A stretch of 64,000 bases of DNA, taken from Phyllosticta citribraziliensis (taxonomy: Eukaryota). Below the pieces are notes generated by a model. The model was not told the origin of the DNA. It searched no databases and saw nothing but the letters and a program-made list of their open reading frames with translations. The stretch is taken from the NCBI RefSeq assembly GCF_038025025.1, contig NW_027117342.1, positions 1,302,001 through 1,366,000 on the forward strand, given 5' to 3'. Every line of letters begins with the position of its first letter. The first letter of the stretch is position 1. Shown here piece after piece: positions 5,828 through 57,135 of this stretch. The position numbers and the translations under genes are program-made.

Positions 5828-6037
5828 GCCCGTGACATTGCTCAGTACACAATGAACTCATGATCTGCGAACGCGCTCAATTTGGAGAGGAATGATGTAT
5901 TTACGTGAGCTATACCAATCATTACAACCACGATGGCAGAGGTACGAAACCAAAGGTAAACCAAAGCTATGCGTGCCAAAACGACGTAATCAACGAGGGT
6001 ATCTCGCAACCAGTTAGCCGGCCGTATGCAACACAAA

Positions 6038-7818
6038 TCAAGCCTTGAGGGCATCCGACACTTTTTCAGCCATGGCTAAGACTTTTTCCTCTTCCAGTCT
6101 GCGTGCCACGAGCTGCAGGTTGATGGGCTGGCCATCGATTGCCTCCACGTTGTCTGCACCCGCACCGTTAGTTCAGTCGTTTAGAACCAGGGAGAAGAGA
6201 GGTAGACTTACACTCGTCCTTGGTCTTCTGGTCAAACTCGTTGCGTGTCTCGCGTGTTTGGTCCTCTGCACTGAACCCGTCCACCTGCTTGTCGACCCTA
6301 AGCCCTGTCGGGAAACTGACGGCCGAGTAGTCCAGGCAGTTGTACACACACGTGTACCCCACGTATCTAAACTTGTCATGTTCGACGGCCGCGTAGGGAG
6401 CAGTAGGACAGAGGATGGCATCGAGCCCCGCCGCGTTCCAGCGGTCGAGGTACTTGGATTGCAGGTCGTTTCGCTCGAGGTGGATCTGCCACATGTTGTA
6501 GACGCCCAGCTCCGCGGCATCTTCATACGAGCGCATCTCGGGGCGGAAGGGCTCGCGCGTGGGAGCGAGGAGTGCGCGGACGGACTTGCCGCCGTCGGAG
6601 ACGAACATGCGAGCCTGTTGAACAACAAAGTCAGAAAGCTGGGGTTGTGTCAGAGGATTCTGGAACTTACGATAAGTCTTGCAGCTCTTTCATGCATTCC
6701 TTCGCTTTTCCACTCGACAATATCGTGCCCTGCCCTTCTCAGCTTGTCCACTGCAAGCTGCAAGGCCCTCCGTATCGGCGGTGTCGGCAACACGACATCG
6801 TCATCCCACAATACGCCAATCTTCAACTTCTTGGAGACATCAACCTTCCTCCATGGAATCGGAAGGCATTTCGGGTCATCCAGCCACGGCGAAAGCTCCA
6901 CCACCTTTTGCGAATACGTGGCAATGGTGGCCAAGTCCGGCGCCAGCGGTCCATTCACCGACATGACAGCTTCCTGCCCCGCCAGTCCGGATCTTGTCTT
7001 GGCCGTCGGGAAACGACCAGCGCTGGGGCGTAGAGTCCAGAGACCAGTGCAAGCAGCTGGAATGCGCAGCGATCCACCAATATCACTGCCCACGCCCAGA
7101 CAGCTGCCACCGAATGCAATCAGCGCGCTTTCTCCGCCAGAGCTTCCACCCGATGTCAATTTCCGATTGCGCGGGTTTAGCGTACGGCCGAAGACGTTGT
7201 TGACAGTCTCGGCAATCATCATCGCAGTGGGGACGTTGGTCTTGACATAGACGATTGCGCCGGCGGCGAGTAGCAAGTCGACGAGGGTGCTGTTGAAGGG
7301 CGAGGGCTTGCCCACCAGCGACGAAAACCCGAGTGTCGCATCGGTGCCACGGACTTGAAAATTGTCCTTGATAGAGATGGGAAGACCGTGTAGCGGGCCA
7401 ATTGGCTGGCCGGTGGTTGCCAGATGCTCGTCGAGAGTTCGCGCGGTGCGCAGGGCCAGGTCGAAGAGGGTCTCGGAGAGACAGTTCGTCTAGATTCTGC
7501 GTCAGGTCCTGGACAGCAAAGGAAAGATATCAAAAGTCGCACCAACTGATGGGCAGCGCTCGCCCTTTTACAAAATGCCTTGGTCACTTGCTCGGAGCTG
7601 TACTTGCCACTCCTCAGTCTCTTCAAGAGGACCGTCGCCGACGAATTGGTAATCTCCAGCTCCTCAGCGGTGAACCACCCCGACTTCTGGGGGAATGCGG
7701 TCACGTCGAGCTGGGATTCGGGCGGCAGGATGTTTGCGGGGATGCGCCACTCTTCGGGGATGGAGTCGAGCAGCGCAGCGCGCTTTTTGGCGGCAATTTC
7801 TTTCCACGATCCTGGCAT
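6038..7818 (-). CDS. Amidase-signature family enzyme (acetamidase AmdS-like), ~4 exons
   Basis: WKEIAAKKR..SIPEEWRIP start; GPLHGLPISIKD, KTNVPT, GGSSGGE, GSDIGGSLRIPA (Ser-cisSer-Lys triad motifs); C-terminal LQLVARRLEEEKVL; stop 6040-6038. Confidence 0.95.
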
Positions 7819-8441
7819 GACTATGAGCGCGATGGAAAGGCGACGCGGACGAGAGGAGGTCGGGACGTACCATTTCAATATTGTGGAGTGGTGGTGGTCG
7901 GCGTGTAATAGCTAGACAGCCGCCCACTTTTGGCGCATCGGCTCGGCATGTCGGGATGCTGTGGTTGGGTGTTAATCGCGGCGTCATCAGGCAATATCCC
8001 ACCATGGGTCCCGGGTGAGCACTTGGGAGGCCGGCAACCCGTGGCGCCTGTTTACGTTCCTGCGCGCGGTCCGGGAAGGGTCTGGTCCTTTGCCGGGCAT
8101 GATGCGGCTTGGAGATTGAGGCGCTCTTCCAACAGACTCGGGCATGACAGTCTCTGGATTTCCTTTCCAAACAAGTTCAGATAGCAGAGGGGTCCGGCTA
8201 TCAGGGCGAGATGGAAGAGGAGGTGGATCAGCCGAGATGGAGGCGTGGAGAGGGCCCAAGGTGGACGCGCCGATCCCCGCTAATCCAACGCTTGCACATT
8301 GTGGAGAGGCGACGATCCTTGACAGAGAGGAAGAATGCCATGGACGTCATCTGAGCATTGAAGCCATGACAGGGCAGAAGCGCAACTTTCTTTGCTCGTT
8401 TGCACAAAGACAAAGGTTGAGACCATCTTCGCGCGACGTTG

Positions 8442-8524
8442 AAGTAGAATTGTGGGTCTCTGACTCGCGCCCTTATCCTGCCCGTCGACCACAACCCCGG
8501 GAAACCACTTATCAACCTATCGCA
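8442..8524 (+). repeat. Direct repeat copy 1 (83 bp promoter module; pairs with 14357-14440)
   Basis: AAGTAGAATTGTGGGTCTCTGACTCGCGCCCTTATCCTGCCCGTCGACCACAACCCCGGGAAACCACTTATCAACCTATCGCA; differs from copy 2 by 2 substitutions and 1 indel. Confidence 0.97.
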
Positions 8525-8776
8525 TTGATGCGGCTCAGCACCATACGCGCTCGTCTATCCCGCGACTGCTCTCAATTAATTAGCTGGATACTTTCCATTA
8601 CCTACCATCAAAGCCAAACCTTTAAGCATCAAGCGGAGAGAATGGCACAGGACCTGTGAAGAGAGGGAAATGTAGGGCACTATGCACGCAACAAAGTGAA
8701 TGAGAATCAGAAATGCATGAAATCTACATAACCTCAACGATTGACCTGTCTACCACTCACAATCTTCATTTCCTGG

Positions 8777-9441
8777 TTATGGCTCTTGGAAGCCCGAGTC
8801 ATAGCGTCCCTTCGGTCTACCCTTGCCTTGGCCTTGCTGGATGGACAAACTGCGCATGCGACCAACGGTACCTTGATCAGCCTCCCCCTCACCTGCCTCA
8901 TCTTCACAGCCCTCATGGTCTTCTTCAACGGGGACCTTCAGGGCCTCGGCAATCTTCGCATCCTATAGAAAATGAACTTCTGAATGGGGCAAAAGAATCA
9001 ACGTTGCTTACCACAATTTCCTCATCTGTCATGCCGGCCCAACGCTCTTTCTCTGTGGCTTCGCGCTCCTGTGCCTCCTCCAACCACTCCTGCGCCTGAT
9101 TGAGCTTCTTCGATAGATAGGTGATCAGGTGATCCACGGATGTGTCGTTGATGAGACGGGTGTAAAGCCGGATGGCCTCACGACCGTGGGCACTAAAGTA
9201 GGACGCAAATTAGCTCTTTTCCTGTGTCTTACACTCGGCATTCTTACACAGGGCCATGGTCTGACTTGGTCAACAGTAGATGCATGTTGGCGGCGTGGTA
9301 GTCACCAAGTCGTGGCTCAAGAAGAAGCTCATTGGCGAGGCGGAAACCTTCTTCTTTGTCGCCGGCACGGGCGCGTTCCCACGCGTTGTCGTCACGCCAT
9401 TTGAACATGAGACTCAAGTTGGAGGCGCGTTTGGGTGACAT
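8777..9441 (-). CDS. Small helical hypothetical protein, 3 exons (~190 aa)
   Basis: MSPKRASNL..LLLEPRLGDYHAANMHLLLTKSDHGPV|AHGREAIRLY..coiled acidic segment; intron GTAAGA 9247 to TAG 9193 with a CTAAT branch point, second intron ~9010-8964; stop TAA 8779-8777. Confidence 0.7.
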
Positions 9442-10652
9442 TTTGGTGAAGAAGATGATAAGAGAGGTGGGAGGTCGAACTGAGGAGGTTGCAGCTTGAA
9501 GTATTGTTGAAGAAGGACCGGGCGAAAAATCATGCTTGGTGTTTGGCTCGCCTGCCTAGAGCCCCAGGGCGCATACATTTCAGGTCTAGCGTACTGTAGT
9601 CATTTGTCGAGCTACATGGCAGCGGAGGCTTGCATGAGGAAACGACACTTGGTTGGCAGCAAAAGTCGTGGCACACACAATCCGAAAGCTCTGCAAACGA
9701 CCTTACCAGGATTTGGCTTGAATGCTCCCTGACGGCCTCCCGACAGTGTTGCATGTGGCCCGACTTTCATGACCAAGCCTCGAAATTGCCCTAGGACTCC
9801 GCTCACCATCCGTTTTCGATCATAATCATAGTTCTTGTATGGTATATCGGCTGGTCTCTTGTCAAGCTAAGGGAATGCATGTTGTCGCCCGGATGTGAGA
9901 GGGACTGCACGACAGCGAGAAGCCGTAGGATTGCTTGCGAAAACAAGACATAAGAATGCTGCGTGTCATAGACAATCAGTGCGTGCTTGTCCTGGCGTTG
10001 GCACACTGTTGATTGCAAAATAGGATTGCTTCATGATCGCAATGTGAGGTGAGGCAGATGAGAGACCAGTGTCTTCCTGAAATGACCTCAAAATTTGAGA
10101 AAGACAAACATAAAGGGTGCATGAAGAAAACAATTTTCCAATGAGCAATCGATTAAATGGAATACCGTATCAAGTTCCGCAATTCCCCACTCACTTGAGG
10201 CTCGTTTGATCAGTCATACGTCCACAACTCATTGGCAAAAGCTTGCATCAATTGCTGCCAGAGGGAAACCGGGAATCTATGCACTTATCTTGACTAGCAA
10301 CAATCAGCTTCAAAGTACATATTGAGCAGGGCAGGCTTGTGCGCCGCGGCCGCAAGTAACGTCAGAGGAGAATACAGTCCCATCGCTAGGTCGACTCTTC
10401 TCTATTGGTCGTTGAATTCTGAAAGTTCCGCCATACTCCCCTCGACTTCCACTCTTCAACTTCCGCTCGCACACTGTCCCGCGACTCCACAACGGCCGAG
10501 GTTCTTTCTGTGTGTTGAAGGATCTGGAAGGACTTTGAGGCGGTAAGTACCAAAACTCTGATCAGACTTGGCCCAAATACTGACCACCTCGTCGAGAAGT
10601 CAACTCGGAATCATCACTCTTCAATTCGACCGTACCCGACCGTTCTTTCGAA

Positions 10653-13562
10653 ATGTCCGAACGTAACCTTCGCTCCGGCGCCAAACATGGTCGCTCGCAC
10701 TCGGACGCCACCAACGTGTTGCAATCAGCTCCCATTTCCAAGCGATCCAAGGGCAAAAACGTTGCGTCTTTCTCGGACAATCTTGAGACGACGACGGGCC
10801 CCGGAAAGGAGCATGACCAACTTTCCAGTACAAAGGGCTCTGTTTCTGCGGAAGACGTTGGATTCGATTATCGAAGGTCGCAAAAGCAGACGATGGCAGA
10901 CGCAATCAAAAACATCAAAATCCTCAACTCTCGGGAGAGAACGCCGTCTAATCCCCTGGTTCAACCATTCAGGGAGTTGTTGTCAGCCACCCCCTTGCAA
11001 GATCGGCAATTCAAGACTCGGGTGGTTGAGGCTCTCTCATCCCGTAGGGGCAACCCCCCCCGCTGGTACATCATTGCGGTGGAGAGCGACATACCCTACT
11101 ACTTTGCTCGGGTCCTCCAAAGCCAATTCAGTGAAGCCCAGGCTCAGCAAATGTGTCAGCTACTTGTCGATATCTTGAACCGGTGGCCTGGCAGTGAGGC
11201 GACGTTAGCCTCCAAAGAACCGATGTCGACCTGCAACGTCCCCGCTGATCATCTCCCCTTGATGGTGATGATGGAGACGCATTTATTCCCGAATAGGCCC
11301 ATTCGCATCAGATGTGCTTCCTACAGGGGGACCAAGCATCCGGTAACTGTCAGCCTTCAGATCAAGCTGATAGATCCCACCACAAGGAAACCCTACTTTT
11401 TCTCCCAAACGTACTCTGTATCTCAAATGCCGGCCAACGCCCAAGTTCCCGAAGTCGGCGACAATGTTGTTGTCAACTACGTTGGCAAGGCTCCAGACGC
11501 TTTCGAGGGAAAGGATCAGTCGGGCTCCTTCAGATCTAATTTGCCAGCTTCTGGAATCGACAACGCGACGAGATCGAAGCTCGAAAACTGCGAGCGGCTT
11601 CTTCGCCACCTTGCTGTTCGACTCTCTCAGACACTTATCAATGAAGATGCGGCGAAAGCCATTGGCGATCACCTTCTCGATACGCTCGCAGGAGGTCGCA
11701 AGACCTTGGTAAAATCTGGTCCTTACGGTAAAAAACGACTCGTGTACCCGATTCGATATATTCAGCGCCGTCTGTGGAAGATCGTACATGGGGAAAGCGT
11801 CCTCAAAGATGTGTCGGAACCGTTTCCACCTTTCTTTGTCTATTCACTCGACAGGAGATGGGTCATTCCAGTCATCGACATCATGGAGACGACATGGTTG
11901 CAGGGAGGAAGCCTCCACGAGGTCTGGACCGTCGGGGCTGAAGCTGCCGACAATGTCAATGCCCTGATCCGCACTGGTGACATGCCACCGGGGTCTTGCG
12001 ACTGTGGTCCCGAGTCGTCTCGATCAGAAATGCATCCCTGTCAAAAATGTGCAAAGCTTACGCCGTGCGCAGCTTTGACGTATGGCTTCTTGCGGTTTCG
12101 ATTATGTGCAACTTGCCACGAGCGGGACTCCAAGCAATCAATGTCGTTACCGGAGCAGCTGGCTGTCTTTTACGTCAAGAACATGCTGGACAGTAATGCT
12201 CGGAAGACTGGAAGAAGACACGGAGACTCAAGTGAACGTGCGAAAAAGGACGCGGCCGATGAAGTTTCTTCGATTTTCTCGGAGCATTCTCCAAATTCTG
12301 TTGAGTTCACTGACCAATACACTGGCTGCGTAGAGCAACTCTCCACGGATTCGTCCCATGGCAAGACCCCCAACGCTCTCACCATTGATGCAGTCTTTCC
12401 TTATGGATTCTTTCAAGAAACAGCCTTCATCCACTGTCGCGGAAACCTTGCCGTGACCACACTGGTCATGAACTACGCCAAACATATCCAAATCCCGGCG
12501 TTTCTCGTTGCATTGAAAGACTGGATTGTCGCGGAGCCAAATTGCCGAAACAACCCTGCACAACTCCAGCGATTGCAGTCCGATATGGTTGCACGTTGCT
12601 CCACACTTTCGGCTATTCGTCTCAAGGCAGCCTGGACCATCAAAGCCCGCGAACGTACCAAGTACAATCTCGGCAAGTATGAATACGATCGCGAAGAATG
12701 GCTCTCCGGAAAGCTTCGCAGTGGCGAAGCCGGCCCTTGGGACAAGCGGTCGGACCTCTCTCTGACAAGTGGCTTCAAAGTCCCCGCTGGCGATTTGAAA
12801 GGATGGCCTCAAGCTGAGATGAAGCGTATCAAACGAATCGTCCAAGAGATGAAGGCATGGTTTCAAGTCGATCTTCCTGAAAAGAACGGATGTCCATACT
12901 TCGCGCACCCCGACACCATGCCCTCAACCTGGTCTTGGGGCCTCTGCTTTGCCATTGTCACATGCCGGCGTATTCGAATGGAGTTGCATTGCAACCGCCA
13001 CTTCCCTACGGTCGACACCGCAGAGACCATTTACTTGGAATGTATCTTTGTTGCCCTCGTCACCATCTGTGTGATCAAATCGAATGACCCCGACAAAGCG
13101 CTCAAACTCCGGTACAAAGCCAAGTATCTCGAGTTCCTGCGACTTCCCCTGAACGTGCGGCATCACAACCCGCTGACTTTTGTTGTCGCGCACCGCATCC
13201 ACGGTGCACAGATGGCATCAGGTTGGCGACCAAGCCCGCAGAGTTTCTCAGACCGCATCGATTCACTCAACAACATGCTCATCGAAACGAGGACTTCGAA
13301 TTTTGCAAAGCACAACTTCGACAAGGACCACTGCGATCTCATCAAGCACATGCTCAGCCAAATCGATCTGCCGCTGACGGTCTATGACCCGAGTGTCAAC
13401 CTTTCTCCAGCCAACCGCAAATACCGGAAAGACTTCGAGACCGTCGACGACGACGAGGACCTTGACCTTGACGATGGTTTCGGGGAACTCCTTGATCAGA
13501 TGGAGGACGACGAAGACGACGACGTCATCGACGCCGATGAGGAGGAGGACGATGAGGACTAG
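10653..13562 (+). CDS. 969-aa intronless protein with Cys/His cluster and two HNH-like (His-Me finger) motifs; putative nuclease
   Basis: Uninterrupted 2.9 kb ORF; CDC..HPCQKC..C..CATCH (aa ~449-489); repeated motif N-x4-T-x3-N-[YF]AKH at aa ~600-611 and ~875-887; acidic tail. The ORF itself is certain; the nuclease function is inferred. Confidence 0.8.
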   Translation: MSERNLRSGAKHGRSHSDATNVLQSAPISKRSKGKNVASFSDNLETTTGPGKEHDQLSSTKGSVSAEDVGFDYRRSQKQTMADAIKNIKILNSRERTPSNPLVQPFRELLSATPLQDRQFKTRVVEALSSRRGNPPRWYIIAVESDIPYYFARVLQSQFSEAQAQQMCQLLVDILNRWPGSEATLASKEPMSTCNVPADHLPLMVMMETHLFPNRPIRIRCASYRGTKHPVTVSLQIKLIDPTTRKPYFFSQTYSVSQMPANAQVPEVGDNVVVNYVGKAPDAFEGKDQSGSFRSNLPASGIDNATRSKLENCERLLRHLAVRLSQTLINEDAAKAIGDHLLDTLAGGRKTLVKSGPYGKKRLVYPIRYIQRRLWKIVHGESVLKDVSEPFPPFFVYSLDRRWVIPVIDIMETTWLQGGSLHEVWTVGAEAADNVNALIRTGDMPPGSCDCGPESSRSEMHPCQKCAKLTPCAALTYGFLRFRLCATCHERDSKQSMSLPEQLAVFYVKNMLDSNARKTGRRHGDSSERAKKDAADEVSSIFSEHSPNSVEFTDQYTGCVEQLSTDSSHGKTPNALTIDAVFPYGFFQETAFIHCRGNLAVTTLVMNYAKHIQIPAFLVALKDWIVAEPNCRNNPAQLQRLQSDMVARCSTLSAIRLKAAWTIKARERTKYNLGKYEYDREEWLSGKLRSGEAGPWDKRSDLSLTSGFKVPAGDLKGWPQAEMKRIKRIVQEMKAWFQVDLPEKNGCPYFAHPDTMPSTWSWGLCFAIVTCRRIRMELHCNRHFPTVDTAETIYLECIFVALVTICVIKSNDPDKALKLRYKAKYLEFLRLPLNVRHHNPLTFVVAHRIHGAQMASGWRPSPQSFSDRIDSLNNMLIETRTSNFAKHNFDKDHCDLIKHMLSQIDLPLTVYDPSVNLSPANRKYRKDFETVDDDEDLDLDDGFGELLDQMEDDEDDDVIDADEEEDDED

Positions 13563-13704
13563 TGGTTTTGAGGTTGGCACTCTGGTGTTGGCAGCTTCTG
13601 GTGGGTGGTACTTCTGACGACGATGTCGCCTGATGGTGTCGTGAAAAGACTTTCCTTTTTTTCATGGTGTCATGACTGCATGTTGCGATTTGCTTTGAGT
13701 TTCA

Positions 13705-14001
13705 TTCAAGAAGGAAATATTGGCAGATTCCTGGAAGCTACTGCTGTGTGGGGTTTCTGGTGGTGATGGTGCCTCTAGTGGTGGTGGCGGCAGTGATTTT
13801 TCCTTTTTTTCTTTTGTCCCTTTCGCCTTTCTGTTTCCGAACATGTTTCAAGAAGGAAATATTGGAAGATTCCTGGAAGCTTCTGCAGTGTGGGGTTTCT
13901 GGCGATGATGGTGTCTCTGGTGGTGGTGGTGGTGGTGGTGGTAGCGCCAGTGGGGTTTCCGTTTTCCTCTTGTCCTGTCTTCCTTTTTGCTTCCGGTCAT
14001 G
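13705..14001. repeat. Imperfect tandem duplication, ~142-bp period
   Basis: TTCAAGAAGGAAATATTGG[C/A]AGATTCCTGGAAGCT.. begins at 13705 and again at 13847; copy 2 has an expanded (GGT)n. Confidence 0.9.
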
Positions 14002-14264
14002 TCATGAGTGCGAGGTGAGGTGTGCTTTGAGTTTTTAGATAGAAAAAAACGTTGGATGCCTGCTCACAGCCCAGCTGAGGTCCAATTGACATTGCTTCCA
14101 TTCATGTGCAATGTGCGCCTTGACACGGACTCAGGTGATGGAGCATAGAGGTGTGGACGCCCGAGGCGCGGTCAATCCTTGTATGAGGTCCGAAACATCA
14201 TGATCCAGGAGTCGAGATCTCGCCGAAACGTTCGCCGTCGCTGGAGAGAAGTGTCTTTTGACTA

Positions 14265-14348
14265 GGGATTCAGAGCAGCCTGCACCAGAAAGCCGGTCTC
14301 TCAGGGTGGCGCTGGCTCTTCATCATCGATGGTCTCATAACCGTGCCC
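14265..14348 (+). pseudogene. 84-bp fragment of a diverged homolog of the adjacent MFS transporter
   Basis: Encodes GIQSSLHQKAGLSGWRWLFIIDGLITVP versus GIQSSLHHKAGLSGWRWLFIIDGLITVP at 15307-15390; 11 nt differences, all at third codon positions. Confidence 0.95.
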
Positions 14349-14356
14349 TTAACCAT

Positions 14357-14440
14357 AAGTAGAAATGTGGGTCTTCTGACTCGCGCCCTTATCCTGCACG
14401 TCGACCACAACCCCGGGAAACCACTTATCAACCTATCGCA
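14357..14440 (+). promoter_or_regulatory. Direct repeat copy 2; GATA-rich promoter module upstream of the MFS gene
   Basis: Contains CTTATC twice and CCTATC once (GATA sites on the minus strand, AreA/Nit2-type) plus CCCCGG (CreA SYGGRG on the minus strand); ~210 bp upstream of the MFS ATG. Confidence 0.7.
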
Positions 14441-14648
14441 CTCCCTCACCCGCCAAGAGTTTTTCACTGGCCGCCACTGAGAGTCGGAGAAGTTCCTGAT
14501 TGTAGCGCTTGCTTAAAACTGCAGAGCGAGACGTGTCCCATGAGGCCGGTATCGGTTGATTTTTAGTTTTGTTCTCACAAGTCACTACATTCACTTTTCA
14601 GTCACGAAAAAGGTCAGAGAAGAGCAACCACGCGCTGAAGCAAAGAGC

Positions 14649-16340
14649 ATGGGATTTTCAGAGACTGTGAGGGCGTATTTTCGTCCCTCACAATCCACGA
14701 AAGAGGAACGCAAACTGGTGCAAAAGATCGACTTTTTCATCCTCACTTTTTGCTGTCTCAGCTACTTTTGCAACTATGTACTTTGGCCCTGAACCTCTCT
14801 CTGCTCTCGAACCTCTTCCAACCCCTGACGTATTTGCTGACCACTATATCTAGCTTGACCGTTCCAACCTCACAAATGCCTATGTCTCAGGGATGAAGGA
14901 GGACCTCTCCTTTCACGGGAACCAGCTGACCCAAATCAACACGTACGAGAGCAGATCTGCGACATTCCAACTATACAGATGCTGATGACATGCCAGCATC
15001 TTCTCCTGTGGCTACATTGTAGGCCAGATTCCGTCCAACCTGGCACTGCACTATGTCTCACCTCGAATTTTCTTCCCCTCGATGATGCTCATATGGGCCG
15101 CTCTCACCATGGCGACGGCTGGAGTGCACCGGCCAACCGACATCATGGCGATACGCTTCTTCCAAGGCATGGCCGAAAGCACAACATTCGTCGGGACGCA
15201 CTACATCCTCGGATCGTGGTACACAGCGCGCGAACTGGGAAAAAGATCCGGCATCTTCACCGCCAGCGGGCTCGCCGGAACTCTTTTCGGAGGGTTTATT
15301 CAGAGCGGCATCCAGAGCAGCCTGCACCACAAAGCCGGACTGTCCGGGTGGCGCTGGCTCTTCATAATCGACGGGCTCATCACCGTGCCTGTCGCCATCT
15401 ACGGCTTCCTCCTCTTCCCCAATACGCCCGCTACCACAACGGCCCCGTACCTGTCGGCGCGCGAACGCGCCCTCGCCCGCTCCCGCGTCCCTGCCGAGGT
15501 GGGCGCCTCGCACAACCAGGCAGACGGACACCAGGCGTCGCCACTGTCGTGGAGGTTCCTGCGGCGCGCGCTGACCTGCTTCCCGCTGTACGCGTTCGTG
15601 ATACTGTGGATCGTTGCGGGCGAGACCGAGTCGTTCAGCACCAACACGCTGCTGGCACTGTACATGAAGAGCTCGCCCACGCGGTCGTACACGGTGCCGC
15701 AGCTCAACGACTACCCGACGGGCGTGCCGGCCGTAGGCATCTTGTCGACCCTCTTCTTCGCCACGCTGACCGACATGCTCGGCGGCTGCCGTTGGATCGT
15801 TGGATACTGGATCGGCCTGACCGGCATCATCACCAGCGCCATGATTCTCGCTGCAAAGGCGAAGGGAGGCGACGAGGCCCTTATTTTCGCCGCGTATTAC
15901 TGGGCTGGCAGCGTCTACGCGTGCCAGGCCACGTTCTTTGCTTGGGCCAATGACGCGATGAGGGGCGAGGAGGCCATGCTGAGAGGCCTTGTCGTCGCGT
16001 GCATGAACATGGGAAGTAACGTAATTAACGCGTGGTGGGCCATTGTGTTCTACTCGGCCGATTTCGCCCCCTGGTTTACTGTGAGCCCAACCCCCCTTTT
16101 TCGCCAATGTCGTTTTTCAAAACTCCTGAAACTGACCTTTTGCAGCGCGGCATGTGGGCCATGATTGGCACGTCCATCGCCCTCGCCCTGTGGACGACCG
16201 TCCTGATATGGTGGACTCGCAAGACGAGAAAAGATCCCATGGCGTTTGTTGGTTCCGACGACGTCGTGGTCGAGGGGCAGCGAGGAGAGACATCGAGTGA
16301 CGTGGCAGACGGAGAGGAAGTGACGCCCGTAAAGGTTTGA
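14649..16340 (+). CDS. MFS transporter, anion:cation symporter family (pantothenate/allantoate permease-like, Liz1/Fen2/Dal5 group), 4 exons
   Basis: ERKLVQKIDFFILTFCCLSYFCNY|LDRSNLTNAYVSGMKEDL, LGSWYTARELGKRSGIF, GLSGWRWLFIIDGLIT. Confidence 0.93.
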
Positions 16341-16803
16341 GAGAAGTTTAGGGAAGAGTTGGAGCCTAGTCTATGTTTGGAGCATGCGTGGTGCTGTGAT
16401 ACCCTTAGTAGTCAAGTCGAAATTGCGACGGAAATGCATATGATCTTGAGCAGTCTTTCCGCGCTCGAGCGCGCACGCATGGTCCATTGACTCGAGGAGA
16501 TGCGTACTTCAACGAGGCTGTCATGGATTCAGCCTTGCACTGAAATTTGAGGGAAAGCACACAAACCTTGCAACCGCTCCTGGTCCAATATGGAACATCC
16601 AGATTGGAAAGTCTCGCTTTTCGACGCTATCGTATCTACACTGTCATTCGAACATGACGCCCTTTTCATGGCTCGTGTCGCCACATGAAATGAGTTTGCC
16701 TCGCTTGAAAAACACACCTCCTCCATCTGCTCAAACGCCTCGCTGTGCCAAGCGCCGTCCCAAAAGCTACCGTTGCTCCTTATGACTGCTCGTCTGCCTC
16801 CTT

Positions 16804-19800
16804 TCACTCTCTCGCCAACTGGGTGTTGATCTCCCACAAGCGCATCGTCTGGCCCTCCCTTGATCGCTTCTTGCTCGTCTCCTTTCCGCTCTGCTCTGTC
16901 AGGCGGATCATAGCCAAGCTCGACTGTGCAAACGCTTCGACAAGCTCCCGCATACGACCCGTGTCGACAAAAGTGCTGGACAGGGACTCGTTGCCCGGGG
17001 CAGCGATTGCGGTTGCGAGATCCATGCATCGGGTGATGTTGTCGCGGCCGACCATGTGCGCGGCGCTGTGGAGGACGCTGTTGTATGCGAGGATGACTTC
17101 GGGGAGATAGGCGCGGGAAATAAGTGCCAATGTTTCTCTCTCCATGTCTGCAAGATTGTTAGCTTTGTCAATTCCAAGGAACGCAAAGGCGAAAACGTAC
17201 CAACGCGCCAGCAGGTCAAGAAATTGTCGAGTAGTGGCTGCATAGCCTCGACAACACGTTCCAGTAAATCTCGAATCTTGTTCTTGGGAGGCATGGGCGC
17301 GCCATTGGCTTTCATCCTGGAGAAAAGTTAGCCTCCAGCTTTCAGTCTTGCCGAAATCCCGCTTACTTGATGAGTTCCTCTTCTTCGATCCTCCACTCGT
17401 CCAGCATTCTTATGGCGTGGATGAGCTGTTGACACTGATAGTAGACCCTTCCGGTGGTTTGGAGCGCCTGTCGGTACCAGGAAATGTCATGTTGGAAGCG
17501 GGGAGAGAGTGAGCCGCCTTGCATCTCGGCAGCAAATGGCTCATTGTCATCCATAATGTCGATTGCACGGTTTATGTGTTTCATGTACCGAGTCTTCAAC
17601 TTCGAGACTTGGATGCAGTTGAGACGGTCAATGAGCTTGACTGCTGAACCCAGTCGACCTTGCCTCAGGAATAGCTTTGCAGCCCCAGTCAAAGCGTCAA
17701 AAGTGTCTTCCCATCTTTCAGGAAGGTGCATGTACCACTCGCAACTCCGCATCAGCTGTTCGTCTTCAAGAGGCACATGTTCCGGCAAGAAACCCAAAGT
17801 TATACGATAACCAGGCCATTGATTGTGCTTGACTGGCTCCAAGATCGTGTACTTTTCAATGTTAGGGTGACCAGATTCCGCATTGGCGTACGACAACATC
17901 AGTTGCCGTTCGAGGACTTCGTCAACGTTGATGCCGTAGTCTTGCATCAACTTGACCTGAATCTGTTGCTCCTGATGGTTGCGAATGTCCGTGAGAGCTG
18001 AAGCAAGGGTCTTCAACGCGGTGTCCGGCGACAGTAGCGAGGCATACAGCGGAACAAGTTCAATCTTGCCAGCCATCCGCAAATATTCGATGTAGCCGAC
18101 CAAGACGCTTTCGTAAAAATGCACTCGGCTTGAACTGTGCCAGGGCATTCCCAGGCCCCTGAAAATAAGAAGAATGTGGGCGGCGATTCGCAGAGCGTCG
18201 TAGTCCCGAGCCAGGCGGACGAAGGGCTCTTCAACTGGCCTGTCTATTGCAGGGAGCAAGAACGAAGAGCCGTTTTCATTGGCAATTTGACACAAGGCGG
18301 CACCAAGTTGGCCAGCAATGCGGTCAAATGTCTTCGCGATCAAGGCACCCTGGATCATCTTCATTGGCTCCGCGCCCTCCACCATTGCCGTCTGGTGTCT
18401 GTGCAAGTGACCGATGATGAAGTCGTTTTCGTTGGTGGCATTGTCTTGAGGGTTCCACATGCTTGGTGGAGAGCGAAGGCGTGCGCTGGGTTTTACCGAC
18501 ATGAAAGGAAAGTTTTGATGCTGCCAGTGCTGGAACGAGGAGACGAGGACATTGTTGAGCCGCACGTGGAGGAAGTCGTCCCAAGTGTTGCATACCGGGT
18601 CCACAGATGCAATATCGCCGGCGAGAAATCCAAAGACGGCCGCTTCGTACTCGTTCTGGCCGCCCAGGGCCGCGGCATAACAGGTGTGACGCCACAGCTC
18701 GCCGCAGTTTCTGCTTCGTGCCGAGTTTCTTCGGTCCTTGCCGTCAAAGTCCTCGTTTGGAAACGACTTGCCCAGAGCAACAGCCCGCCACTGCTCGTTG
18801 CGCTCAGAGCACCACTCCCAAATGGTCTGCCAGGACGCACCGCGCCTTAGCATTTCCCAAAGAGACATCCAAATCGCCTTTTCATATTCTTCGTCTGCTT
18901 TTTCAAGAGCGCGTATCTGGCGGCTCGGCGCGTCTGGGTCGAGGTGTGAGACGAGGGGTTCGCCGGTGTCGTTGCGCTTTACTTTGGACAGCGCGTTGCG
19001 ATCCAATGGGTGCATGCGCTTTTCGTGCTTCAGCCTAGATTTGGTATCTTGCCATCCTTTGGACCAAGTTCCGGCGCCTCGTCCAAACTTTTGATCCACC
19101 ATGACCGAGACGTCCTCGTTGGCCTCATCGGCTGTTGTCTCCAACCAGCGCAGGATAAGATCTTTTTCGCGAGCCGTATCGTCCTCCACGAGAAAGCGAT
19201 CCCACACCTGGCCTGGGTCCGAGTACTTGTCAATCCTCGTCCTGGCCAAGAGGTCTTGCTTAATCCTCGAAATGTCTGTTCCTGGCTCCTGGTAGTTGTG
19301 CTCGACCATGATGCGGAGCAATTCCCAAGTAGCGACCTCGGCTTTGGACTGCTCGAGGAGTGTCCGCGTGTCGCCTGAACCGATGCCGACGTCTTCTTCC
19401 ACAGACTGAATTATCTCTTCTTCCCGAACTCTTTCCAAACGCTTGTTGGGTGCACCGCGCAACTCCTGTGCCAGCCTCTTTTTCAGGGAGCGTACGTTGA
19501 CTTCAGCCTCAGCTTTGAGTCGGAATAATAGATCCATTGTGGCGCGATGATTGGTCAAAGACGTCGCGTTGTCGTCGGCAATGGTCCTCACCCAGGTGTC
19601 CACGTTCTCGGCAAATTTCTCGACTTCTTTGCCCACGCGCTCAGCCATTGCTTGCAGTGGATGGAGGTCTTCATCACGCGGGCGGTACATGAGGCTGAGG
19701 GTATTGGTCGTATCGGCTTCGCGCGCAATGTTTTCGTCCAAGTCTGGTCGCAGCCTTCTGTGCGGCTGTTGCAGGTCTCGCGACCTCCGGTATAGGGGAG

Positions 19801-55371: not shown

Positions 55372-57135
55372 TCAAATAACCAAGCCGCCAAACGCCTCGG
55401 CCACGCCCGTCAGCGGTGCCTTGGCGCGGCCAAAGAATAAGCGGCTCCTCCGGTTGCTTTGTTTCTGTTGGTGCTCCCGCTCGCCCTCGCTCTCAATCTT
55501 CTTCAGCTGGGGCGGTCCAGCAGCGGCGGCAGGAGCCGGGCGTGTCCTGGCCGGGCTTAGCGGCTCAGTCGGGGCGTCGCCACTGCGAGCACCAAAGAGT
55601 TCGGTCTCCGTAATCGTGTTTCGAGCCGTGCTGTTGCTGGTGATGGGCGTGAGGTATGCAGAGTAATTGCCGTCGCTTTCGACGTGCACGGAAAATGGCC
55701 GAACGCTCTCGCCGCTCGCTTCGCGGCGCACAGTGCGGCGCCTGGTGAGCTGGCGAAGGCAGGCTTCGCGCTGGTCCGGAGTAAAGTGGTGAGCAGAGTA
55801 GTGCGGGGGAAGTTCGGAATAGTACGAGACGGTCTGGCGTTTGGCATTGATGCGCAAGCGGCGGCCCCCGTGAAAGACGACGTCGCTGGCTCTCGGAGAG
55901 TTGCACATGAGAACGGGGGCGCAGCGCTTGCGGTATCGAAGAAGGGAGGACGGGGAAGGGTCGGGCGTTGCGAGCTTTGCGCTGACGTCGGGTCGTAGCT
56001 CTTCGAACGATGGCCGGGAGGTGCCAGTCACGGACGTCACGTCTGTCACGCCGTCGGCAAATGTGGGCTGCTCCGAACTAGCCGTGATTTCCGTTTCGCT
56101 CCTTGCCAGGGTGACTTGAGGAGCTGATGGGAGCAAAAGATCCGAAGGGTCCATTTCTTCGCTGGCTGCTTCGCGGGCCGGGGGAATGGCGGCGCGCTCT
56201 TCCTCGACGGCCTCCAAGGCCAGGTTGGGATACATTGTGCGAATGATGCGCTCCTGCTCGGCGAGCAAGCGTCGGGCAGAAACGTCAATGTTTTCGCTGC
56301 GGGGCCTGGTGGTGGTGGTGGTGGTGGTGGTGGTGCCGCCGTTGGAGCCGTCGAGTTGTCGCTGACGGCGTCCACGCCTGGGTATGCTGCGGTAGCGGGG
56401 CTCGCTGCGGACGTCGAGCGGCTGGGAAATGTCGACGGCAGTGCAAATTTGCTCCACCCAGTCAAGCATGTCTCCCTGGTCGCGACTGCAGAGAAGGAAT
56501 TGCTCGGTTTCCAGCCTCAGGCGGATGACGTGCTCCCTGATGGGCCAAAAGAGATGGGGGTCGGTTTCGTAGAGGGATTGGCGCGCAGCAGGAGGTATCA
56601 GCTTAGCCAATGGCGAACGGGGAGTGAGGTCAGTCTTTTTGAAATCCAGAGCCAAGCCGATTTCGGCGTGTTGGAGGGAGTAGTTCTTGAGGAGACGGCC
56701 GGGGGAGGGCTTGTGGGAGCGTTTGCCAAAGAATTGGTGCTTGAGGCGGTAGATGCTGAGCATGGTGCCGCGGAGCACGACGTAGACGTCGATCCAATTG
56801 GCTTGCTTTGAGCAGGGAAGCTCGAAAATGTTTGTTACTTCCTTTTTGAAGGCCAGAGGACCCTGGAACTCGATGGCGCACGAGTAAGGCGGCAGATGAT
56901 CTGAAGGTCGGCTTGACTCGGGATTTTGGAGCGAAGAGGCATAAGTGGGAGGAGTCTGATTCGGGTCCTGGGGGAGCGAGTGGGTGTGGAAGGTGTTGTG
57001 GTAGCCGTAGCAGCTGGTGTGGGCAGCCCTGGGGTCGTCCTGAGGGTCCTGGGGCTGGTTGGCGGGATTGGGAGACATGGTGGGAGGATGGCGGTGATGG
57101 CGAAGGAGAAGAGCGACCAACGCAGCGAGCGCCAT
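55372..57135 (-). CDS. PH-domain protein (YHR131C/YNL144C-like) with PY motifs
   Basis: LPPYSC, WIDVYVVLRGTMLSIY, YSLQHAEIGLA, VIRLRLETEQFLL, WVEQICTAVDISQPLD; alternative start at 57078. Confidence 0.85.
   Translation of the reverse strand: MALAALVALLLRHHRHPPTMSPNPANQPQDPQDDPRAAHTSCYGYHNTFHTHSLPQDPNQTPPTYASSLQNPESSRPSDHLPPYSCAIEFQGPLAFKKEVTNIFELPCSKQANWIDVYVVLRGTMLSIYRLKHQFFGKRSHKPSPGRLLKNYSLQHAEIGLALDFKKTDLTPRSPLAKLIPPAARQSLYETDPHLFWPIREHVIRLRLETEQFLLCSRDQGDMLDWVEQICTAVDISQPLDVRSEPRYRSIPRRGRRQRQLDGSNGGTTTTTTTTTRPRSENIDVSARRLLAEQERIIRTMYPNLALEAVEEERAAIPPAREAASEEMDPSDLLLPSAPQVTLARSETEITASSEQPTFADGVTDVTSVTGTSRPSFEELRPDVSAKLATPDPSPSSLLRYRKRCAPVLMCNSPRASDVVFHGGRRLRINAKRQTVSYYSELPPHYSAHHFTPDQREACLRQLTRRRTVRREASGESVRPFSVHVESDGNYSAYLTPITSNSTARNTITETELFGARSGDAPTEPLSPARTRPAPAAAAGPPQLKKIESEGEREHQQKQSNRRSRLFFGRAKAPLTGVAEAFGGLVI

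Follow-up and report, generated by a model that had tools for sequence, protein, structure and literature searches.

A 5.9-kb block with a duplicated promoter piece and a diverged transporter-gene fragment between the amidase and MFS genes of Phyllosticta citribraziliensis

In the 64,000-nucleotide stretch of DNA from the citrus-associated fungus Phyllosticta citribraziliensis that we analysed (the window), the intergenic region between an amidase gene and an MFS gene holds a block of ~5.9 kb with two complete genes that point away from each other. Both of these genes are expressed, the functions of both are uncharacterised, and the block is not fixed in the genus Phyllosticta. It carries an 84-nt fragment of the neighbouring MFS gene which, judged from the distribution of codon changes, must derive from a separately evolving functional copy of that gene. 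Our leading explanation, held tentatively and put somewhat below an even chance, is that the cassette arose in a duplicated segment running from the promoter to codon 204 and then, through homologous recombination at this locus, crossed from one lineage into another that was diverged from it. The parts of the region are as follows.

6168..8346, minus strand: left neighbour in divergent orientation (amidase gene, 5' part), outside the presumed insertion (PF01425, E 3e-81 on the ORF at 6650-7489)
8442..8524, no strand: P1, left copy of the 84-nt promoter-region repeat (96.4% identical to 14357-14440)
8525..14264, no strand: presumed inserted DNA proper, 5740 nt, missing at a relative's locus
8777..9441, minus strand: small three-exon gene, 186 aa (spliced model and annotated protein P0293)
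9442..10652, no strand: spacer between the two divergent genes of the block, presumably their shared promoter region, judging from the gene orientations
10653..13562, plus strand: 969-aa ORF (P0001), member of a large uncharacterised Pezizomycotina family (ORF, family and structure-model analyses)
13563..14264, plus strand: 3' untranslated region of the 969-aa gene (contig record 3 of run X1)
14265..14348, plus strand: 84-nt MFS fragment, codons 177-204, from a diverged functional copy (alignment with the resident gene)
14349..14356, no strand: 8-nt junction TTAACCAT from the fragment to P2
14357..14440, no strand: P2, right copy of the promoter-region repeat, immediately upstream of the intact MFS gene (repeat alignment)
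14649..16340, plus strand: intact MFS gene, liz1/pantothenate-transporter type, 498 aa (all 498 residues of the spliced model agree with annotated protein P0274)
15307..15390, plus strand: resident counterpart of the fragment, codons 177-204, with the GWRWLFIIDG motif (alignment)

The original prediction had described a layout with a duplicated promoter piece and an MFS fragment, and alignments recovered both repeats. The alignment of P1 with P2 has 84 columns, 3 of them with a difference (E 1e-32), and the fragment (14265-14347/8) is 88% identical to the resident gene (15307-15389/90) over 83 nt (E 6e-24). The similarity of P1 ends sharply on both sides, none is left on either side outside the two 84-nt pieces, and a search of the whole 64-kb window found no further copy of the promoter piece or of the MFS fragment. 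No more MFS-like sequence was found in the block (best blastx E 0.24). The 8 nt TTAACCAT match the resident GTCGCCAT at only 5 of 8 positions, and are thus filler or else the fragment continuing in decayed form. The two pieces are of nearly equal length, 83 and 84 nt, an observation that we counted against our leading explanation. As originally proposed, the block showed neither a transposase or recombinase family nor terminal inverted repeats at its ends (alignment score 17 versus 16.0 +/- 2.2 for shuffles), and it likewise contained no tRNA or Rfam family. The GC content of the insert is 0.49-0.54 versus 0.58-0.62 in the flanking genes. The resident MFS gene comprises exons at 14649-14777, 14854-14942, 14997-16080 and 16146-16340; its homologs carry PF07690, and the best matches outside Phyllosticta are 74-77% identical, several of them being named pantothenate transporter or liz1. 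By sequence similarity, the neighbouring gene and the fragment are of the MFS, liz1/pantothenate-transporter type.

All 11 differences between fragment and resident gene in the 84 nt lie at third codon positions (11 of 28), versus none at the 56 first and second positions; the predicted recoding by third-position changes held in this respect, but it is not strictly silent, as ten changes are synonymous and the remaining one (CAG versus CAC) turns His184 into Gln. Eleven randomly placed differences would be confined to the 28 third positions among 84 with a probability of P = 1.2e-6, and this value stays low even if half (P = 0.012) or a fifth (P = 2e-4) of the changes between fragment and resident gene are placed in the working gene. 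The restriction to third positions indicates that the fragment evolved within a working MFS gene, in agreement with the earlier suggestion of a sequence-diverged allele, and this working-gene source would belong to another lineage. The fragment's combination of Gln184 with Ser189 was found in none of the five sequenced Phyllosticta species.

An empty amidase-promoter-MFS allele, as envisaged in the original prediction, was found in record 21 of run X8 (26,149 nt, from a related organism). This record holds 1984 nt of the amidase and 568 and 754 nt of the MFS gene in the same order as in the window, and its amidase-to-MFS gap is 691 nt versus 6588 nt in the window, where 672 nt would be expected without the insert and one repeat copy. 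This difference in gap length marks the block as a lineage-specific insertion with an empty site in the relative; the direction of change would thus be insertion, although the empty site could in principle reflect a deletion by recombination between P1 and P2. In a second organism, record 15 of run X3 (5881 nt) spans 8495-14386 with both inner junctions and 174 differences (3.0%), and a second P. citribraziliensis assembly (1.22-Mb contig) lists a 969-aa homolog and the MFS gene under consecutive accession numbers. A word-based search of 532-1696-aa proteins found the 969-aa protein in P. citribraziliensis only, while annotations of the MFS ortholog exist for five Phyllosticta species, in line with the predicted variability of the block in the genus. 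Among the 120 best MFS homolog clusters, one came from Phyllosticta, with one protein per assembly in five named species, and no close Phyllosticta paralog was present among them.

Both genes of the block were supported by contigs of run X1. The exons of the small gene lie on the minus strand (9441-9248, 9192-9012 and 8962-8777, stop included) and encode 186 aa; exon 1 of the model is identical to annotated protein P0293, and both introns are absent from the X1 contigs, which confirms the three-exon structure. The four minus-strand introns of the amidase gene are also absent from contigs of this run. The small protein has a helical, TPR-like architecture and an acidic tail. It matched no family in Pfam, and in an ESM Atlas feature search 28 of the 30 listed matches were unnamed Ascomycota clusters (best score 0.95). 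For the 969-aa gene, X1 contig record 3 spans 12840-14258 with 1 difference from the window, and the 3' untranslated region contains a 91-nt direct repeat (13705-13795 and 13847-13937, 89%). One further X1 contig stops at 14410, within P2, beside adapter letters.

The 969-aa protein belongs to a family of at least 442 cluster representatives at E <= 1e-3 (101 at E <= 1e-30), hypothetical proteins of Pezizomycotina, which share full-length similarity including a Cys/His cluster (aa 449-489) and both N-x-x-K motifs. The family is patchy and very diverged, with 34-43% identity within Colletotrichum and 23-38% between genera. The predicted fold of the 969-aa protein is confident (pLDDT 92.6) and contains two strand-strand-helix motifs ending in N-x-x-K-H (aa 577-611 and 844-887), on which the structure models place His, Asn, Asn and Lys. 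Among 100 family sequences, H594, N598, K610, P757, C780, N781 and L831 are near-invariant; near-invariant residues of the family in the second motif are H850, E878, N883 and K886. The first motif has Ala at the modelled strand-end position that is occupied in the second by His847, and which we take to be the catalytic position of HNH enzymes. The protein had been predicted to be twin HNH-like, a description that holds for the motifs only: profile searches gave it no support, and HNH profile membership was rejected since none of 50 family members matched an HNH Pfam family at E <= 1. The 969-aa protein itself had no Pfam match at E <= 1 except a chance-level match to TAN, and no PDB relative by sequence or by Foldseek. 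The remaining indications came from elsewhere. One of the 50 members matched an HNH family in PHROGs (E 0.0076, about chance level over 50 proteins), another single match among the 50 was to endonuclease VII (E 0.1), and in one Atlas cluster (score 0.82) PF01844 HNH is present in 11% of members. In structure comparisons, giant-virus proteins ranked best (eight rows, E 0.005-0.016, prob 0.96-1.00); matches to a giant-virus 'HNH endonuclease' (E 0.15, prob 0.91, TM by target 0.51) and a 'divergent HNH endonuclease' (E 0.54) were also obtained. These leads from independent tools are weak and non-significant, and all point to His-Me-finger nucleases. 'Nuclease' is accordingly a lead for this protein and not a result, no nuclease domain being demonstrable.

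How could this structure have come about? A junction between the end and the start of a unit, as seen between fragment and P2, points to integration of a circle by a single crossover or to a tandem duplication. By the first route, P, the cassette and the MFS piece would have been together on one molecule, circular from the start or circularised, that integrated through a single crossover at P; by the second, the segment from P to codon 204 would have been duplicated in tandem, and the interior of the first copy lost to the cassette. Either way the structure would have formed at this very locus in one lineage, and homologous recombination would later have carried it into a genome whose MFS allele was diverged. 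The right-hand exchange would lie between P2 and codon 177. With a donor as diverged as the fragment suggests, a promoter piece of 84 nt that is similar enough for a crossover is a difficulty for this explanation, which would be resolved if both copies of P came together from the donor. The fragment lies 1 kb from its own ortholog, which is unexpected for random capture and argues for homology or a shared history of the locus. The 3 of 84 differing columns between P1 and P2 are close to the 3.0% between the blocks of the two organisms, which fits a duplication at the origin of the structure. On the other side, the identities of the MFS protein over aa 1-204 versus aa 205-498 (95.0% versus 97.6% to P. 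citrichinensis, 95.1% versus 92.9% to P. citricarpa) give no more than a non-significant trend towards a mosaic MFS gene (Fisher p = 0.13), which we counted against this explanation. Origin from a circle or by duplication is thus presumptive, as are passage from one lineage to another and any part that the 969-aa protein had in it; the block may move between lineages, and DNA cleavage by it is putative.

Homing would account for several of the same observations. The 969-aa protein would act as a His-Me-finger (HNH-type) endonuclease, its targets would be alleles that lack the element, cut within the conserved MFS segment or close to it, and repair from the element-bearing chromosome would copy the cassette together with a resistant, differently spelled 5' part of the MFS gene, the 84-nt fragment being the relic of an earlier host's allele. 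The presence or absence of the block with an exact empty site, the adjacent host-gene fragment changed at third codon positions only, the conserved His, Asn and Lys on the modelled motifs, the patchy and very diverged family, and the weak leads from giant-virus structures, PHROGs, endonuclease VII and the Atlas all agree with it, as do two lineage-specific amino-acid changes of the resident MFS gene at codons 169 and 176, just before the boundary codon 177. Against this, none of the nuclease leads is significant, neither HNH Pfam families nor the PDB (sequence or Foldseek) gave a match, and the first motif carries Ala where the second has His847. The geometry also fits poorly: the remnant of old coding sequence sits on the downstream side of the putative nuclease gene, no more than 84 nt survives at either end of the old unit, the element-bearing allele has the MFS gene and the P2-5'UTR junction whole, leaving no visible split target site, and the element is a single copy with no cluster of elements or fragments within the 64-kb window. 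Reasoning from section 10 of PMC7282813, copying primed by the 84-nt fragment would extend over P2 and the MFS gene and leave out the cassette. Overall, we regard homing as unlikely.

We consider a purely local history improbable as well, to the same degree. Here an old tandem duplication from P to codon 204 would have had the interior of its first copy replaced by unrelated DNA, with no transfer between lineages, and the third-position pattern would stem from change in the working gene or from later gene conversion of the resident. The junction of fragment and P2 is the classic signature of a tandem duplication, and P1 and P2 are still 96% identical. Third-position GC is 0.86 in the resident segment and 0.80 in the whole resident gene versus 0.75 in the fragment, which makes some directional synonymous change in the resident gene plausible. 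However, a non-functional copy should change at all codon positions, contrary to the 0 of 56 versus 11 of 28 observed; the divergence of 13% in the coding piece versus 3.6% in the promoter piece is the reverse of what a single duplication predicts; and the changes are not of the RIP type, 7 of the 11 being transversions.

A move within the same genome, in which the cassette came from beside a paralogous MFS gene and landed by chance or short homology, is very unlikely. The liz1-type transporters do form large families, with the GWRWLF segment as their most conserved part, and several run X8 contigs match 14294/14307-14342 only; contigs of run X3 match only the coding part of the small gene (8945-9424) with unlike flanks, indicating that a relative of this gene exists elsewhere. 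Yet the fragment shares 27 of 28 residues with the resident protein, where the P. capitalensis ortholog shares 26 of 28 over the same segment and the listed representatives of other genera differ more, and the 120 best MFS homologs include no second Phyllosticta cluster. A chance landing less than 1 kb from the ortholog would, moreover, be very improbable in a genome of tens of megabases. Finally, an assembly artefact (merged haplotypes, or a free circle sharing P with the chromosome and wrongly threaded into the locus) is hardly credible: short-read contigs do break inside P1 and P2 (X3 record 15 at 8495 and 14386, X2 record 7 at 8512) and so cannot alone connect the block to its flanks, but the source contig is 2.47 Mb long, the second assembly has both genes under consecutive accessions, and the independent X3 organism confirms the inner junctions.

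To our knowledge, homing-type elements in eukaryotic nuclei are almost only inteins, rDNA group I introns and yeast WHO elements, and in a limited full-text literature search we found no account of such a nuclear element in a filamentous fungus. We think it quite unlikely, and state only as a bold reading, that filamentous fungi provide, with this cassette, the first example of a nuclear 'homology-riding' selfish element. It would be a ~5.9-kb unit able to circularise, with two short patches of homology taken from the host (the promoter piece and the MFS segment of highest conservation) head-to-tail. It would encode a new type of His-Me-finger nuclease, one that giant viruses also have, to break alleles without the element, and would be copied at the same locus across lineages while leaving the transporter gene intact. 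If this were true, Pezizomycotina would have a large class of mobile genes that has gone unrecognised, in the form of this family of at least 442 clusters. The locus offers a clean filled-versus-empty pair, a host-gene relic attributed to another lineage and a candidate effector from a family of hundreds of unannotated fungal proteins, with a confident predicted fold that lacks a solved counterpart. Even if the cassette is passive cargo of hybridisation, it would record gene flow between diverged Phyllosticta lineages at base-pair resolution, and a large protein family with giant-virus relatives would be flagged as meriting a biochemical test.

Among known systems, the original prediction had drawn an analogy with WHO elements, which are described at FBA1 in Torulaspora and Lachancea (Coughlan et al. 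2020, PMC7282813; Osborne et al. 2026, bioRxiv 10.64898/2026.08.13.744650), with FBA1 alleles 85% identical downstream of the cleavage site (PMC7282813, section 10). The likeness lies in a nuclear, intron-less and intein-less element beside an intact host gene with a host-gene fragment adjoining, in ~85-88% identity between fragment and working gene, and in presence that varies between genomes. The analogy failed on geometry. WHO fragments, as described there, are found beyond the nuclease gene and extend from the point of cleavage to the end of the host gene, whereas the fragment of the block is internal, 84 nt long and placed downstream of the 969-aa gene, between it and the MFS promoter, with the promoter piece duplicated; the locus also lacks the cluster of elements reported for WHO. 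In a mirrored WHO layout, on the same descriptions, the nuclease gene would be preceded by the old promoter and codons 1-204, both intact, unlike the 84 nt per end seen here. We therefore rejected a WHO-type end replacement, the surviving piece being internal (codons 177-204) and lying between the large ORF and P2. WHO proteins are described as LAGLIDADG plus zinc finger proteins with demonstrated cleavage, unlike the 969-aa protein with no detectable nuclease domain; a WHO-type element was also rejected on the protein, which has no LAGLIDADG or intein-derived family in Pfam and no sequence relative in the PDB. Starships and DNA transposons resemble the block in being present or absent with host-like genes, but the flanking repeat of this 5.9-kb block measures 84 nt, unlike a short target-site duplication; they were rejected for want of a DUF3435 tyrosine-recombinase 'captain', a transposase or terminal inverted repeats. 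The likeness to His-Me-finger (HNH) proteins consists of the two modelled strand-strand-helix motifs with conserved His, Asn, Asn and Lys, and of giant-virus structural neighbours, two of which are named HNH or divergent HNH endonuclease (E 0.15 and 0.54). In 'ends-in' integration, seen with integrative plasmids in fungal transformation in the laboratory, a single crossover inserts circular DNA to give repeat, insert and repeat with the target gene intact, and the second homology arm joins the repeat at the circularisation junction, often with filler bases. That is a laboratory observation, whereas the cassette is known here as integrated DNA and its arms are only 84 nt; the order P1, cassette, fragment, TTAACCAT, P2 and MFS gene matches it exactly.

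Both repeats described in the original prediction, one of promoter-region sequence and one of MFS transporter coding sequence, were present, and each was unique within the 64-kb window, which belongs to Phyllosticta citribraziliensis. They belong to a 5.9-kb block between the amidase and MFS genes, whose inserted DNA (the cassette) carries two genes. The features are as follows (window positions).

8442-8524: P1, left copy of the 84-nt promoter-region repeat (P)
8777-9441, minus strand: small gene, three exons, 186 aa
10653-13562, plus strand: large gene, 969-aa ORF
14265-14348: 84-nt MFS fragment, codons 177-204
14357-14440: P2, right copy of the promoter-region repeat
15307-15390: counterpart of the fragment in the resident MFS gene

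P1 and P2 were 96.4% identical over 84 columns (3 of 84 differed), and the fragment was 88% identical to the resident sequence. Similarity stopped abruptly at all four repeat borders, and no residual homology was detected outside the two 84-nt pieces. Terminal inverted repeats, tRNA genes and Rfam families were all absent from the block, as were tandem repeats other than a (TGG)8 run (13918-13942), which lies after a 91-nt direct repeat in the 3' region of the large gene (13705-13937; 89% identical, spacing 142 nt); a TGG-rich stretch resembling this run also occurs at 56306-56340. The left neighbour of the block is an amidase (PF01425), and the right neighbour is a liz1/pantothenate-type MFS transporter, the spliced model of which matched the annotated protein P0274 of the same species at 498 of 498 residues. 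Exon 1 of the small gene was identical to the annotated protein P0293. The 969-aa ORF showed 92% identity to P0002 of the same species with 100% of the query covered, while in another comparison P0002 was 100% identical to it across three matched stretches. P0002 comes from the second assembly and is annotated at 890 aa, 79 residues shorter than the ORF, which is probably a gene-model difference (a predicted intron) and not a real deletion.

Contigs of four public sequencing runs were aligned to window positions 6000-18000. A 26,149-nt contig of run X8 (record 21) matched the amidase part 6070-8053 at ~83% identity, together with MFS positions 14642-15209 and 15535-16288, with the two genes in the order of the window. 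The gap between amidase and MFS was 691 nt in this contig compared to 6588 nt in the window, and the length predicted after removal of the block and one repeat copy was 672 nt. Record 21 shows the site empty in a relative. A 5881-nt contig of run X3 covered 8495-14386 with 3.0% differences and spanned the junction between P1 and the block, the fragment, and the junction between the fragment and P2; therefore, a second organism shares the same structure. In addition, a large-gene homolog and the MFS gene carry consecutive accessions in the second P. citribraziliensis assembly. The block is a genuine insertion, not an artefact.

Several further contigs touched this locus. Low-depth X8 contigs matched the block (e.g. 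record 22, 12000-12267, 24 differences in 268 nt) and could represent a third carrier lineage, and in one X8 contig position 14384 was followed, after 24 other letters, by 8472, perhaps a permuted junction from a circle or a tandem array. In X3, the block contig (8495-14386) had a word depth of 71, the flanking contigs summed to about 143-240, and two MFS variants (depth 139.5 and 75) were seen at 14747-15180; X3 may hold several genomes, one alone with the block, a use for which contig depths are unreliable, and depths were excluded from the evidence. X3 contigs of depth ~143 matched the small gene in its coding part only (8945-9424), skipping 148 nt (9188-9337) and differing from the window on either side of the match, and the organism of these contigs seems to have a relative of the small gene elsewhere.

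Contigs of run X1 were identical to the window and lacked the minus-strand introns of the amidase, small and downstream nucleoporin genes, indicating that they derive from spliced RNA and confirming the three-exon model of the small gene (intron joints 8961/9011 and 9192/9248). X1 is read as RNA from these intron-less contigs, the run label itself being a guess. One contig covered 12840-14258, taking in the last part of the large ORF and the adjoining 3' region and ending 6 nt short of the fragment; bins 10010-10811 and 11614-12014 of the block had no X1 cover. A 5199-nt X1 contig had one end at 14410, inside P2 and beside adapter letters, and extended without a break over the entire MFS gene and on into Nup84/Nup107 (PF04121), a minus-strand gene downstream. 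Four minus-strand introns were absent from it (16069/16136, 16517/16567, 17147/17201 and 17315/17366) and the plus-strand introns of MFS were retained, which suggests that a long antisense transcript crosses MFS and that one of its introns overlaps MFS intron 3.

The differences between the fragment and the resident gene bear on where the fragment came from. All 11 fell at third codon positions (11 of 28, compared to 0 of 56 first and second positions; P = 1.2e-6 under random placement), 10 being silent and one replacing His184 by Gln. The probability of this pattern was 0.012 if half of the changes arose in the working gene and 2e-4 if one fifth did. Because changes at every codon position are expected in a dead copy, the fragment belonged to a working MFS gene during almost the whole time since it separated from the resident one. 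RIP was rejected as the origin of the differences, 7 of 11 being transversions. Among the best 120 MFS homolog clusters, a single one came from Phyllosticta, with one protein per assembly; as far as proteomes show, then, the fragment does not come from a paralog. The combination of Gln184 and Ser189 in the fragment was absent from all sequenced species compared: these residues are His and Ser in P. citribraziliensis and P. citrichinensis, Gln and Thr in P. citricarpa and P. citriasiana, and Leu and Thr in P. capitalensis. The divergence of P1 from P2 was similar to the 3% between the blocks of the two organisms. The MFS protein was 95.0% identical to that of P. citrichinensis in aa 1-204 and 97.6% in aa 205-498 (p = 0.13), so that a mosaic MFS protein is a trend only. 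Two of the four P. citribraziliensis-specific changes in aa 1-204 (Leu169 and Ser176, within 15100-15306) lie just before the codon 177 boundary, in numbers too small to interpret.

An MFS ortholog is annotated in P. citricarpa, P. citriasiana, P. citrichinensis, P. capitalensis and P. citribraziliensis, and the large protein was found in P. citribraziliensis only (word-based search, proteins of 532-1696 aa). A HMMER search of 1.84 billion representatives returned at least 442 homologs of the large protein at E <= 1e-3, 262 at E <= 1e-10 and 101 at E <= 1e-30, and 46 of the best 150 hits were under 500 aa. Ten of 20 clusters looked up were named, all as hypothetical or uncharacterised proteins, from Colletotrichum, Fusarium, Dactylonectria, Thyridium, Elsinoe, Friedmanniomyces and Dothidotthia; identity was 34-43% within Colletotrichum and 23-38% between genera. 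No Pfam family matched the large protein, 30 of 32 long homologs had none (one C2H2, one PHD), and nothing relevant was found in 50 family members. For genomic context, a 7-sequence alignment confirmed 5 of 265 candidate stretches, two earlier alignments having been too diverged. Two metagenome loci (L001 and L002) had flanks of at least 2 kb, too few to judge an association with host-gene fragments; they contained no recognisable adjoining gene or gene fragment (12 ORFs scanned, 2 chance-level hits), no flanking repeats like those at the MFS locus and no small-gene homolog (best E 0.12). A chance-level gag/pre-integrase hit (L001, 4976-5467, E 0.0034) and an AT-rich palindromic stretch at a contig end (L002, 35-114) are hints of repeat-rich DNA around these homologs. 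The small protein likewise had no Pfam family; 28 of its 30 Atlas feature hits were unnamed Ascomycota clusters (best 0.95), and its predicted form resembles TPR proteins.

AlphaFold modelled the whole large protein at pLDDT 81.4 and residues 549-935 at pLDDT 92.6 (pTM 0.92). The most conserved residues of the family (H594, N598, K610; H850, E878, N883, K886) fell on two strand-strand-helix motifs that are alike, …N-L-x-V-x-T-x-x-x-N-Y-A-K-H and …N-M-L-I-E-T-R-T-S-N-F-A-K-H, and both appear to resemble the N…N-x-x-K signature of HNH enzymes. Foldseek against PDB returned 0 matches at E <= 0.001 for the whole and domain models, PDB searches by sequence and by profiles A3 and A1 gave acidic-tail matches alone, the VIA results for the whole model were filled by a helical hairpin at 496-549, and ESM Atlas feature scores (0.82-0.83) were at chance level, the Atlas's own model having pLDDT 0.45. 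In the viral structure library, eight giant-virus proteins matched at E 0.005-0.016 (prob 0.96-1.00), one of them named as a Zn-finger protein, and lower matches included an HNH endonuclease (E 0.15, prob 0.91) and a divergent HNH endonuclease (E 0.54). Thus, several weak leads, none significant, agree on a His-Me-finger nuclease; they make the large protein a candidate nuclease, and the odds that it has a nuclease-type active site are slightly better than even.

The elements stand in the order P1, cassette, fragment, 8 nt, P2, 5'UTR and MFS; therefore, the end of a unit running from P to codon 204 is joined to its start. In the simplest history, the structure would have arisen once, at this same locus, in a lineage whose MFS had the spelling of the fragment, and would later have entered, by recombination, a genome whose MFS allele had diverged, the right-hand exchange falling between P2 and codon 177. 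Its origin could be a single crossover at P with a circular molecule bearing P, cassette and fragment, the 8 nt being a circularisation scar, or a tandem duplication whose interior was then replaced, which would give an equal product; the two are equally compatible with the observed order. Under the WHO model for the yeast homing elements at FBA1 (PMC7282813, section 10), the displaced old part is expected to survive whole beyond the nuclease gene, and a mirrored version of that mechanism was rejected on the order of the elements here. Moreover, if a broken end primed on the 84-nt fragment, P2 and the MFS gene would be copied and the cassette would not, and nuclease-driven homing of the block is improbable. 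Helitron-type capture was rejected with no Rep/helicase present, and the block ends are presumably unlike Helitron termini.

Overall, the original observation was confirmed and extended in its repeats, insertion and codon pattern. Its interpretation found partial support. Searches of open-access text turned up WHO papers and mitochondrial or intein work, with no comparable nuclear element in Pezizomycotina, and as far as these searches reach, the nuclear genomes of filamentous fungi have no described counterpart. We conclude that the block is a genuine cassette, expressed and lineage-specific; from sequence comparison, the relic of the host gene that it carries suggests that it moved from one diverged lineage to another at a single locus. 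The block does not belong to the WHO elements, and recombinational integration accounts for its layout better than end-replacement homing does.
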